A stretch of 49,494 bases of DNA. Source: a virus. Positions within the stretch are counted from its first letter, which is position 1. Each line of letters starts with the position of its first letter. Both the position numbers and the translations under genes were made by a program. Location: IMG/VR virus record IMGVR_UViG_3300044534_000145. One strand, written 5' to 3'. Positions 47,682 through 48,632 of the stretch are shown in pieces. The notes under the pieces are model-generated. The model searched no databases and was not told where the DNA came from. It saw only the letters and a list, made by a program, of their open reading frames with translations.

Positions 47682-48632
47682 ATGGCTAGTCCTCATAATA
47701 ATGTGAATTCGCGAGAAAAGACAACCTATACTTATAAAATAAGTTGGTCTCAAGCAAAAAATAAGTTAAAAAAGTTTTATAAAGTATATTTCCAAAAAAC
47801 AAAAGCAAATTTAAAGTTAGCGCTTCTTCCCCAATGGATGGATGAGTATGGAAGATTGCTAGAGCTTGAAAACAGTCGTCATCTTCCAAAGTATTTCAAT
47901 ATTTTAAGGCAAGGAACTATCGTAATGGTAAATTTTGGAGTAGGTATTGGTAGAGAGATGAGCTTAAACCATTTTGCTGTAGTCTTAACTAAAAATGATA
48001 GTAAATTCAAGCATACAGTTATAGTTGTTCCTCTTAGCTCCAAACAGCATCCCAAAGAGGGTTATCTACCACTTGGATATGTTATTACTGATAAACTTGT
48101 TTCGCGCTCAAAAGAACGCTCCGATAAGATGCTCAAACTTGCACAGAAGGGAAAAGAGAATATTGACTACTTAATGAAACATGCTTCAATCAATAGTCAA
48201 GTCTCACCTAAAAGTTATAATTATTTTTTGCAACATGGACTAGATATTAAAGATTTTAGCAAAACACCATTTGACTATAGTAATTATAGAAAAACTAAGC
48301 TTTATACTAATTACCAAACGGCTTTACGTATTAATGAGGAATTAAATGATAAAGAGATGTCAAAGTTTTTAAATTTTCTCACTGAAACTTTTAAAAAAAG
48401 CGATGAACTTTCCATCCTTGTTCAAAAAATACAGCCTGGCATAAGGGAGCTAGAAACCCTAACAAAAAAAGCAAAAAAATATAACAATCAAACGTATGCA
48501 GATGTTGGTAATATCACAACGGTTAGTAAATTGCGCATAATAAAATTTTCAAAATTTAATATTTCTGAGAATACTCAGGTTAGTCAGGACGTTATTGATA
48601 AAATACTCAACCGACTAAATGATTTTATTTGA
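47682..48632 (+). CDS. MazF/PemK-fold protein with an N-terminal extension and a large internal insertion; solitary
   Basis: RQGTIVMVNFGVGIGREMSLNHFAVVLTKNDSKFKHTVIVVPLSSK and C-terminal TYADVGNITTVSKLRIIKF match the two halves of the MazF/EndoA fold. RBS TAGGAGGGA. Confidence 0.6.
   Translation: MASPHNNVNSREKTTYTYKISWSQAKNKLKKFYKVYFQKTKANLKLALLPQWMDEYGRLLELENSRHLPKYFNILRQGTIVMVNFGVGIGREMSLNHFAVVLTKNDSKFKHTVIVVPLSSKQHPKEGYLPLGYVITDKLVSRSKERSDKMLKLAQKGKENIDYLMKHASINSQVSPKSYNYFLQHGLDIKDFSKTPFDYSNYRKTKLYTNYQTALRINEELNDKEMSKFLNFLTETFKKSDELSILVQKIQPGIRELETLTKKAKKYNNQTYADVGNITTVSKLRIIKFSKFNISENTQVSQDVIDKILNRLNDFI

Follow-up and report, generated by a model that had tools for sequence, protein, structure and literature searches.

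We analysed a 49,494-nt stretch of viral DNA (IMG/VR record IMGVR_UViG_3300044534_000145; hereafter, the window) whose two ends share an exact 90-bp overlap, consistent with closure into a circular genome. It represents a temperate phage of Lactobacillaceae that, on sequence comparison, is distantly related to sequenced phages: the closest large terminase (L. crispatus phage vB_Lcr_AB1) is 61% identical, and a megablast search of positions 47000–49494 against GenBank phages returned no match. An earlier note, made by a model from the letters of this DNA, had drawn attention to a solitary gene that it read as a MazF/PemK-fold protein split by an insertion (Table 1). Its account of the gene itself holds: the ORF is present on the plus strand, starts with ATG and encodes 316 amino acids; the ribosome-binding site, which the note had praised, is graded strong; the gene's own terminator was recovered as a hairpin (48735–48769; -20.8 kcal/mol and z = -4.5; none of 200 shuffled sequences folded as well) followed by a T-run; and the gene is AT-richer than its surroundings, with 31.2% GC against 41.2% in the window and 35–40% in its neighbours. 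The claimed setting in the lysogeny operon was likewise borne out by the cI-type repressor, the ImmA/M78 peptidase and the Ltp-type lipoprotein upstream, and by the integrase, which comes next once the circle is closed. The gene lies within the cI operon, between superinfection-exclusion genes and the integrase, with four or five unrelated genes in the approximately 2.2 kb that part it from the ImmA gene.

Table 1. Features of the split MazF/PemK-fold gene and its lysogeny module (positions in the window).
Feature	Position	Strand	Evidence
cI-type HTH repressor, start of lysogeny operon	44635..45012	+	Pfam HTH_3, E = 1e-17
ImmA/IrrE M78 peptidase	44945..45421	+	Pfam Peptidase_M78, E = 4e-14
Ltp-type superinfection-exclusion lipoprotein, same operon	46157..46609	+	Pfam Lipoprotein_Ltp, E = 1.4e-33; PHROG 4980 'superinfection exclusion', E = 7e-33
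Ribosome-binding site AGGAGGG	47668..47674	+	8 nt 5' of ATG, read from sequence
CDS, 316-aa split MazF/PemK-fold protein	47682..48632 (stop codon included)	+	ORF list, Pfam, PHROG, AF2, Foldseek
N-terminal extension, aa 1–71, two predicted helical segments (~22–36, ~44–64)	47682..47894	+	AF2 secondary structure
N-terminal half of predicted MazF barrel, aa 72–134, strands β1–β4	47895..48083	+	Pfam stretch 76–133; EndoA alignment
Hypervariable, predicted helical insertion, aa 135–265, in β4–β5 hairpin	48084..48476	+	AF2 secondary structure
C-terminal half of predicted MazF barrel, aa 266–316, β5–β6 and beyond, with C-terminal helix	48477..48629	+	Insertion-deleted PF02452 match; profile alignment across junction
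Intrinsic terminator	48735..48779	+	15-bp stem, 5-nt loop, then T-run; terminator scan
Tyrosine integrase, ends lysogeny module on circle closure	185..1390	+	Pfam Phage_integrase, Phage_int_SAM_3, Arm-DNA-bind_4

Profile searches and structure modelling were used to examine the proposed split fold. The intact protein matched Pfam PF02452 (PemK_toxin) with E = 3.5e-10 (40.5 bits; gathering cut-off, 23.1) through residues 76–133, aligned to profile positions 1–57, in agreement with the resemblance to MazF/EndoA that had been noticed for the N-terminal half. When residues 135–265 were deleted in silico, PF02452 was matched end to end (positions 1–108 of 109; E = 6.6e-12, 46 bits), a better score than that of the intact protein. 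This end-to-end match and the insertion-deleted family profile both reproduced the alignment that the note had drawn for the C-terminal segment; against the PDB, the latter profile matched MazF/EndoA/PemK chains only, in alignments that crossed the junction ('etyadvenittvsklrvv' with EndoA 'DSVILLEQIRTIDKQRLT'). The MazF signal in this search emerged solely once the insertion was taken out, the matches of the full-length family profile to PDB sequences being spurious low-complexity helical ones that came from the insertion. Weak Pfam matches to DUF4364, Nnf1, TPS and DUF6819 and an NCBIfam match to glucuronate isomerase were sub-threshold, fell in K/E-rich helical parts and were set aside as compositional. 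The AF2 model (pLDDT 92.3, pTM 0.81) answered the question that the note had posed about completion of the barrel: the 48 best Foldseek matches in the PDB were all MazF/EndoA/MoxT/Kid, and the best alignments bridged the insertion (approximately 245 columns; TM 0.70–0.78 normalised to MazF). Profiles and model together show a predicted complete MazF β-barrel composed of residues ~72–134 and 266–316; by its profile matches the protein belongs to PF02452 over the whole domain, and its modelled structure has the MazF fold. In the alignments and the model, it shares with canonical MazF, EndoA (YdcE), MoxT and PemK (Kid) the same β-barrel and strand order, the G-x-E loop, the V-P-x-[ST] and TxxK motifs and the C-terminal helix. 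Unlike the canonical proteins (~110 aa), it is 316 aa long and carries a hypervariable helical module of ~131 aa in the β4–β5 hairpin and a conserved extension of ~70 aa.

The extension, put at about 75 aa in the earlier note, comprises about 71–75 aa and is modelled with high confidence (pLDDT ~96 for residues 21–70). It carries a family motif, K45..L-P-x-W52..E63, in which K45, W52 and E63 are conserved. No Pfam family matched it, and a profile of the extension matched no PDB sequence at E ≤ 10; a MazE-like cis-antitoxin in this part of the protein, which we considered, lacks sequence support. The insertion is helical, as had been proposed, and is shorter than the ~150 aa given in the note: AF2 boundaries place it at roughly residues 134–267 (about 131–134 aa), with two long predicted helices (134–168 and 224–266) and short helices between them (pLDDT mostly 85–97). 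Searched alone against Pfam, it matched no family significantly. Across the family, its length varies from 28 to 148 aa and its mean pairwise identity is 13%, compared with 47% and 35% for the two core halves; against the closest relatives, the core is 76–86% identical and the insertion 40–43%. Fast evolution of the insertion could mean relaxed constraint instead of an arms race. The insertion is acidic in 71% of family members and basic in this copy (net +8, pI 9.5), a charge that lends no support here to a simple cis-antitoxin that mimics RNA through its acidity.

In MazF, the catalytic Arg sits at the start of β2 (Arg25 in B. subtilis MazF, Arg29 in E. coli MazF), and Arg25 and Thr48 are essential for catalysis by the B. 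subtilis enzyme (PMC10893535). In a profile alignment to EndoA, H97 (codon 47970–47972) corresponds to Arg25 and S119 to Thr48. We counted residues in 141 aligned family members, mostly ≤ ~50% identical to one another, and found His at the position of the catalytic Arg in all 141; the Arg that characterizes the MazF family is absent. The earlier note had overlooked this invariant His. The catalytic Thr/Ser at the end of β3 (Thr48/Thr52) is retained, as Ser in 81 and Thr in 60 of the 141 sequences, within the segment P117-L-S119-S120-K121 (48030–48044). D106, P117 and S120 are likewise invariant (141/141 each), E92 is present in 138 sequences as part of G90-x-E92, and S282–K283 (48525–48530) is nearly invariant (138 and 140 of 141, respectively). 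Position 91, in the G-S-E motif, is Arg in the window copy and Ser in the 98%-identical protein P0001, a difference that we count against the reading proposed below. Because the canonical catalytic Arg is absent, and Arg-to-Ala substitution abolishes the activity of ordinary MazFs (PMC10893535), RNase activity is only putative here.

Canonical MazFs differ from this protein also in having a MazE, PemI or Kis partner in a bicistronic toxin–antitoxin operon; no such cognate gene lies directly upstream here in a two-gene operon. The note's statement that no antitoxin adjoins the gene withstood a search of the flanks for ORFs, repeats and known RNAs. No plausible antitoxin ORF was found in the 153-nt upstream and 210-nt downstream flanks, which hold solely ORFs of 27–42 aa with GTG/TTG starts that overlap the end of orf295, and a single TTG ORF of 28 aa; the flanking orf295 and orf122 start with signal-peptide-like sequences. 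A type III (ToxI-like) RNA antitoxin was discounted, the tandem repeats being two trivial AT-rich ones and Rfam giving no match. No MazE, PemI or AbrB-like domain was detected in the gene or its neighbours (Pfam; extension profile against the PDB), and neither the whole protein nor the extension or insertion alone matched MazE, AbrB or SpoVT. A comparison of homologue neighbourhoods, which the note had suggested, revealed no neighbour conserved across loci: the adjacent gene may encode ImmA, a 143-, 73-, 163- or 222-aa unknown protein or a repressor, or there may be nothing. One protein (P0017), identical in two prophages, has different upstream neighbours in them, and another copy (locus L006) stands by itself at a chromosomal site that is not a prophage.

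Far from being unique, the gene is one member of a large family that databases already annotate (PHROG 1412; 'PemK domain phage protein') and that comprises 706 or more clusters at 50% identity. The PHROG 1412 profile aligned with residues 23–314 (profile positions 9–232 of 237; E = 4.3e-43), a full-length match, and the best BFVD match was a 246-aa viral protein (E = 1e-10). PHROG 1412 includes phage 77 ORF017, phiMR25 orf2, S. pyogenes 315.1 SpyM3_0682 and a protein of pneumococcal phage K13. The window protein is 25–37% identical to the staphylococcal and streptococcal phage members and has the same architecture and the same repressor–integrase slot; the order of extension, half barrel, variable insertion and half barrel recurs in the proteins of phages 77, 315.1 and Javan433. 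The Lactobacillaceae branch has a longer insertion and a product of ~300–320 aa, compared with 230–255 aa in the staphylococcal and streptococcal phages. Apparent members without the extension (P0042, P0048 and others) are truncated gene calls and not a natural variant, because every one of them begins at the internal Met82, which is conserved. In Staphylococcus, Streptococcus and Lactobacillaceae, temperate phages and satellites carry the family between cI/ImmA and the integrase, and one homologue adjoins an Abi_2 gene and GmrSD; the 10 loci found by scanning genome contigs with a single peptide pattern are examples of distribution and not a census. Sfi21 orf203 of S. thermophilus was considered as a possible member, and no S. 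thermophilus phage was among the tblastn matches listed. The label 'antitoxin mazE-like' given to PHROG 1412 appears to be an annotation error, unsupported because no MazE-like domain is detectable. In the literature, staphylococcal and streptococcal members are listed as pemK/mazF 'virulence determinants' or as 'PemK-like phage protein' without functional work, and we found there no functional study of, or experiment on, any family member. No defence-system protein model in PADLOC-DB v2 matched the window protein at E ≤ 1. PdpSau, an Abi protein of an S. aureus prophage that we compared, is unrelated, being membrane-anchored and encoded beside the lysis module.

That a defence moron in this part of a Firmicute phage's lysogeny operon can be an RNase is known from Tha, the tail-activated HEPN RNase found in prophages of S. 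aureus, in which an effector domain is joined to a putative sensing part that is not conserved; Tha-1 of phage 80alpha is a single-protein RNase defence encoded near the integrase in the cI operon and, in the lysogen, transcribed together with cI (PMC11087260). The window gene resembles Tha in encoding a single RNase-type protein of ~300 aa in a cI lysogeny operon near the integrase. Their effector folds are unrelated (Tha has the HEPN Rx4H motif), Tha carries its sensor at the N terminus whereas the variable part is inserted here, and Tha is paired with a small inhibitor of its own, Ith, encoded on the opposite strand, for which we identified no equivalent. Another prophage-encoded protein, the fused toxin–antitoxin CapRel(SJ46), senses a phage protein directly through a variable regulatory domain (PMC9712102). 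A toxin fold and a variable domain are predicted, from sequence and model, to share one prophage polypeptide here as well, and in the logic proposed below the two would be alike: one polypeptide with a toxin and its own inhibitory, variable sensing domain. The CapRel toxin is instead a toxSAS tRNA pyrophosphokinase, and its regulatory domain is C-terminal and does not split the toxin fold. EzeT is another fused toxin–antitoxin.

We tentatively propose that this single-polypeptide MazF/PemK derivative may well be a lysogen-expressed, self-regulated RNase for abortive infection or superinfection defence. The gene would be expressed in the lysogen along with cI. The barrel would retain a nucleic-acid-cleaving site in which His97, Ser/Thr119–Ser120, Asp106, Glu92 and Lys283 replace the canonical Arg/Thr pair, and the protein's own helical parts (extension and/or insertion) would keep the enzyme inactive, making a separate antitoxin unneeded. 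A component of a superinfecting phage, recognized by the fast-evolving insertion, would then free the RNase, which would stop translation and abort the infection; as a moron, the gene would serve abortive infection or superinfection defence. Four points favour a defence role: the gene's slot, which is that of Tha in 80alpha; the hypervariability of the insertion; the invariance of the active-site-like residues; and the presence of Ltp and Abi genes as neighbours. We infer that the note's suggestion of a cis-neutralised toxin or an abortive-infection effector is the most plausible reading. The proposal may extend, more doubtfully, to the family in its entirety (700 or more clusters at 50% identity, from temperate phages and satellites of Firmicutes and from some chromosomes) as an unrecognised class of single-protein abortive-infection systems, in which an ancestral MazF would have lost its antitoxin, swapped Arg for His and gained a mid-fold helical sensor and cis-inhibitor whose hypervariable tip reads proteins of the invading phage and unleashes RNA cleavage.

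The replacement of the catalytic Arg in 141 of 141 members would also suit a non-toxic MazF-fold protein that binds RNA or DNA or processes RNA for the phage's own life cycle, for example by trimming or stabilising lysogeny-module transcripts or by coupling expression of the cI operon and int. We regard this as unlikely, although the change to His might render the protein non-catalytic or very narrowly specific, so that no antitoxin would be required, and the tolerance of a solitary gene, its constant position between cI/ImmA and int and the failure of PADLOC models to match point the same way. Against it, the family is accessory, carried by some but not all phages of each group, and is found also in satellites and at a non-prophage chromosomal site; the slot otherwise holds variable cargo (Ltp, Abi_2 and, in 80alpha, Tha), as is typical of morons and not of core regulators, and a domain with 13% pairwise identity would be unexpected in a housekeeping regulator.

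The solitary state of the gene could have another cause if it encoded an ordinary toxin of type II (or III) that is neutralised in trans by an unrecognised antitoxin, which might be a small unannotated protein, an RNA (antisense or structured), or cI and ImmA of the same operon. The PemK domain is genuine, the gene directly follows an XRE–ImmA pair in many homologue loci, and a small unknown gene precedes it in some (a 73-aa gene in locus L005, 77ORF085 in phage 77). Such an arrangement nevertheless seems improbable to us: no neighbour is conserved, ImmA is ~2.2 kb away in the window, the neighbours of P0017 differ between its two prophages, the L006 copy stands alone, and no repeats, Rfam RNA or MazE/PemI/AbrB-like domain were found. 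MazF-family proteins are obligate dimers, and a look-alike might therefore act as a counter-defence decoy that heterodimerises with host MazF or soaks up MazE-like factors, blunting toxin–antitoxin abortive infection directed against the prophage or its relatives. The loss of the canonical Arg and the PHROGs label 'antitoxin mazE-like' would fit a decoy; however, that label is unsupported, with no MazE-like domain detectable, H97, S/T119, S120 and K283 are kept, which a passive decoy would not need, and a place in the lysogeny operon rather than early lytic expression is atypical for anti-defence genes. We give the decoy very little credence.

Few bacterial toxins have been studied as closely as MazF, whose defining trait is its pairing with MazE. 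If the self-regulated RNase reading is true, there would be a large MazF branch without an antitoxin, with its catalytic centre rebuilt on His and a fast-evolving domain inside the fold, representing a new way of keeping a toxin silent. The branch is present in prophage lysogeny operons of S. aureus, S. pyogenes, S. pneumoniae and food and gut lactobacilli. Should it prove to be a defence system, the database labels 'MazE-like antitoxin' and 'virulence determinant' would be corrected, and the family would be a widespread, single-gene and easily testable addition to the Gram-positive immune repertoire that would account for part of the prophage-mediated resistance to therapeutic and dairy phages.

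The PemK-like protein matches Pfam PF02452 in its intact form (40.5 bits, cut-off 23.1), with residues 76-133 covering profile positions 1-57. After in silico deletion of residues 135-265, the 114 aa that remain align as a single stretch to PF02452 positions 1-108/109 and score better (46 bits, E = 6.6e-12). A profile of 15 insertion-deleted homologues matched only MazF/EndoA/PemK chains in the PDB, in alignments that cross the junction and reproduce the pairing of TYADVGNITTVSKLR with DSVILLEQIRTIDKQR suggested in the earlier note. AF2 modelling gave a pLDDT of 76 with 19 sequences (model 1) and 92.3 with 141 sequences (model 2; pTM 0.81); model 2 has strands at 79-84, 96-101, 112-119, 128-132, 271-274 and 279-282, helices from 134 to 266 between the strands and a C-terminal helix (302-315). 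In Foldseek searches of the AF2 model against the PDB, the top 48 matches were all MazF/EndoA/MoxT/Kid; the best alignments span 241-247 columns with a TM-score of 0.70-0.78 normalised to MazF, and as the RMSD of these gapped alignments is high (8-18 Å), the argument is carried by the TM-score and the sequence evidence. The best structural match in BFVD was a viral protein of 246 aa (E = 1e-10, TM 0.69). PF02452, the insertion-deleted profile and AF2 with Foldseek agree that the MazF/PemK fold is completed across the insertion, as the earlier note had proposed; the helical nature of the insertion was also borne out, but its length is ~131-134 aa by AF2 boundaries rather than about 150 aa. In the model, the insertion would stand in place of the short b4-b5 hairpin loop, and the N-terminal 71 aa, for which Pfam and the PDB gave no relative, are predicted to form helical segments (pLDDT ~96). 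Profiles and models thus show a predicted complete MazF barrel that a hypervariable helical module interrupts, with a conserved helical extension in front of it.

In an alignment of 141 family members, His97, Asp106, Pro117 and Ser120 were invariant (141/141), Lys283 and Gly86 nearly so (140/141 each), followed by Glu92 and Ser282 (138/141 each); position 119 was Ser (81/141) or Thr (60/141). Alignment to B. subtilis-type EndoA places His97 at Arg25 and Ser119 at Thr48. Both residues are essential to MazF catalysis and conserved in ordinary MazFs, and the R29A mutation abolishes MazF cleavage (PMC10893535). The family therefore retains the Ser/Thr and has His in place of the catalytic Arg without exception. 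The N-terminal extension carries a motif of its own (K45, L49-P50, W52 and E63). Mean pairwise identity is 47% in the N-terminal and 35% in the C-terminal half of the core and 13% in the insertion, which is 28-148 aa long across the family; between the window protein and its nearest relatives, the core is 76-86% and the insertion 40-43% identical. Insertions are mostly acidic (median pI 5.3, 71% net negative), core and extension are basic across the family (pI ~9.5), and the window protein's own insertion is basic (+8). Codon 91 (47952-47954) encodes Arg within the G-S-E loop motif (GIGREMS); this position is Ser in about half of the family and in the homologue P0001 (98% identical), from which the window protein differs at five other, scattered positions (T14I, T112K, S143L, H166N and A167T).

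The window protein clearly belongs to PHROG 1412, which it matches over its full length (E = 4.3e-43); the label 'MazE-like antitoxin' attached to that group is unsupported. Among GenBank phages, tblastn gave 97-115 records with relatives; those listed were exclusively staphylococcal or streptococcal, among them phages 77, 85, 92, phiMR25, P954, 315.1 and phi3396, the pneumococcal phages K13 and 34117, and numerous Javan prophages and satellites. When 1.84 billion cluster representatives were searched exhaustively with a profile, 1023 matched at E <= 0.001, of which 706 also passed E <= 1e-10 and 119 passed E <= 1e-30; they are ~200 to 326 aa long and mostly align as two stretches flanking an unaligned middle, and short staphylococcal/streptococcal members (237-254 aa) share the architecture with a shorter insertion. 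The closest homologues occur in Limosilactobacillus, Secundilactobacillus, Lactobacillus johnsonii, Leuconostoc, Convivina and Companilactobacillus. These comparisons show a large family with a putative site centred on the invariant His/Ser. The protein belongs to the PF02452 superfamily by sequence and by predicted fold, but lacks two defining features of canonical MazF toxins, the catalytic Arg and a cognate upstream antitoxin, and differs from them in size and domain structure too. Our full-text searches met the family only as annotation ('PemK-like phage protein', and pemK/mazF phams among staphylococcal-phage 'virulence determinants') and yielded no functional study of it. The PemK-like gene is a further member of a family already annotated, yet uncharacterised; taken together, the family represents a new form of the MazF kind.

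Bases 1-90 and 49405-49494 are identical, so the window represents a closed circular phage genome (49,404 bp) whose lysogeny operon runs past the 3' end of the window into the integrase. The minus strand carries divergent cro-like and antirepressor genes and every structural gene; the nearest large terminase is from an L. crispatus phage (61% identity). The ImmA ORF, in another frame, shares 68 nt (44945-45012) with the 3' end of the cI ORF; translation of ImmA probably begins at an internal start codon nearer the cI stop. The two lipoprotein pieces correspond to PHROG 3727 positions 1-45 and 81-196, respectively, and look like a single gene that a stop codon or a frameshift has broken, or else like a product of misassembly. 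The Ltp lipoprotein is of the same kind as that of S. thermophilus phage TP-J34, so the operon already has one exclusion gene. The Tyr-, Trp- and Asn-rich orf295 (no match in Pfam or PHROG) and orf122 (sole match PHROG 21170, function unknown) may be additional surface or exclusion morons. The junction ORF lies just upstream of int and on the same strand, in the slot of small xis-/ith-like genes in other phages.

Features of the lysogeny operon, and loci with homologues (L numbers, contig loci)
Feature	Location	Strand	Basis or remark
cI-type HTH repressor	44635-45012	+	operon gene 1
ImmA/M78 peptidase	44945-45421	+	operon gene 2
Lipoprotein in two pieces	45393-45602, 45669-46106	+	PHROG 3727 matches
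Ltp superinfection-exclusion lipoprotein	46157-46609	+	two Ltp repeats; Pfam PF07553, E = 1.4e-33
orf295	46641-47528	+	signal-peptide-like start MKFKKSILVGVTAFSFGG; directly upstream of PemK-like gene
PemK-like CDS, 316 aa	47682-48632	+	ORF list
Strong intrinsic terminator	48735-48779	+	3' of PemK-like gene; terminator scan and RNA folding
orf122	48843-49211	+	signal-peptide-like start MKLKKMLLVGLASLSLG; directly downstream of PemK-like gene
90-aa ORF across circular junction	49231-49494 into 91-99	+	PHROG 32962 (function unknown), E = 1e-22
Tyrosine integrase	185-1390	+	last gene of operon
cI-to-integrase order, Limosilactobacillus	L004, L005		
Same order	L008, L009		Abi_2 gene between PemK-like gene and int, GmrSD beyond
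Same order, L. rudii	L010		
Same order, L. johnsonii	L011, L013		
Same order, Convivina	L012		
Same order, Vescimonas	L017		
Same order	L021, L022		
Same order, phages	Javan433, 315.1, 77		
Abi_2/GmrSD-type genes, related prophage	L008 7704-8714, 10569-11738; L009 3518-4528		
P0019, 316-aa member	L006/L007 6001-6951		solitary among housekeeping genes

The PemK-like gene is solitary within this operon. AGGAGGG lies 8 nt 5' of its ATG, its terminator folds at -20.8 kcal/mol (15-bp stem; z = -4.5; 0/200 shuffles fold as well), and its GC content, 31.2%, is below that of the window (41.2%) and of adjoining genes (35-40%). The spacers on either side of the gene (153 nt upstream, 210 nt downstream) are free of credible small ORFs, offering just GTG/TTG ORFs (27-42 aa) that run over the end of the preceding gene and one TTG ORF of 28 aa. 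Neither ToxI-like tandem repeats nor an Rfam match was found around the gene. These results uphold the earlier view that no antitoxin is adjacent. Among the loci with homologues, the recurring order was cI (HTH), ImmA, variable cargo, PemK-like gene, optional further cargo and integrase. The gene directly upstream of the homologue was different almost every time, and differed between two prophages carrying identical copies of one homologue (P0017). P0019, flanked by histidine-phosphatase and phosphoribosyltransferase genes, has no integrase and no repressor-ImmA pair within 5 kb; it is a chromosomal copy outside any prophage, with no neighbour fit as antitoxin. The slot near the integrase behaves as a defence-gene hotspot. 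In a related prophage, the GmrSD-type gene lies just beyond the integrase; Abi_2 is an abortive-infection family.

Two precedents bear on the mechanism. Tha-1 of phage 80alpha, a single-protein HEPN RNase (301 aa), is encoded in the cI operon close to the integrase and to its small inhibitor gene, ith-1; the lysogen transcribes it together with cI, and its activators are tail proteins of incoming phages (PMC11087260). CapRel, borne by a prophage, fuses toxin and antitoxin in one protein, and its variable domain senses a phage protein directly (PMC9712102). The PemK-like protein would likewise be expressed with cI in the lysogen, as a putative RNase with an altered catalytic centre; its own helical parts may hold it silent until a superinfecting phage frees it, whereupon infection would be aborted. 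We hold this joint reading tentatively, as a good possibility. The main rival, a non-toxic MazF-fold RNA-/DNA-binding or RNA-processing protein for the phage's own lysogeny control, seems unlikely, if well worth considering. A hidden trans-acting antitoxin is improbable: the varying upstream gene and the solitary copy argue against any conserved partner in that role. Less probable still is an anti-MazEF decoy.

The family is found widely among prophages of medical and industrial importance. It is easy to test and, if the self-silenced RNase reading holds, could supply a new single-gene type of defence.
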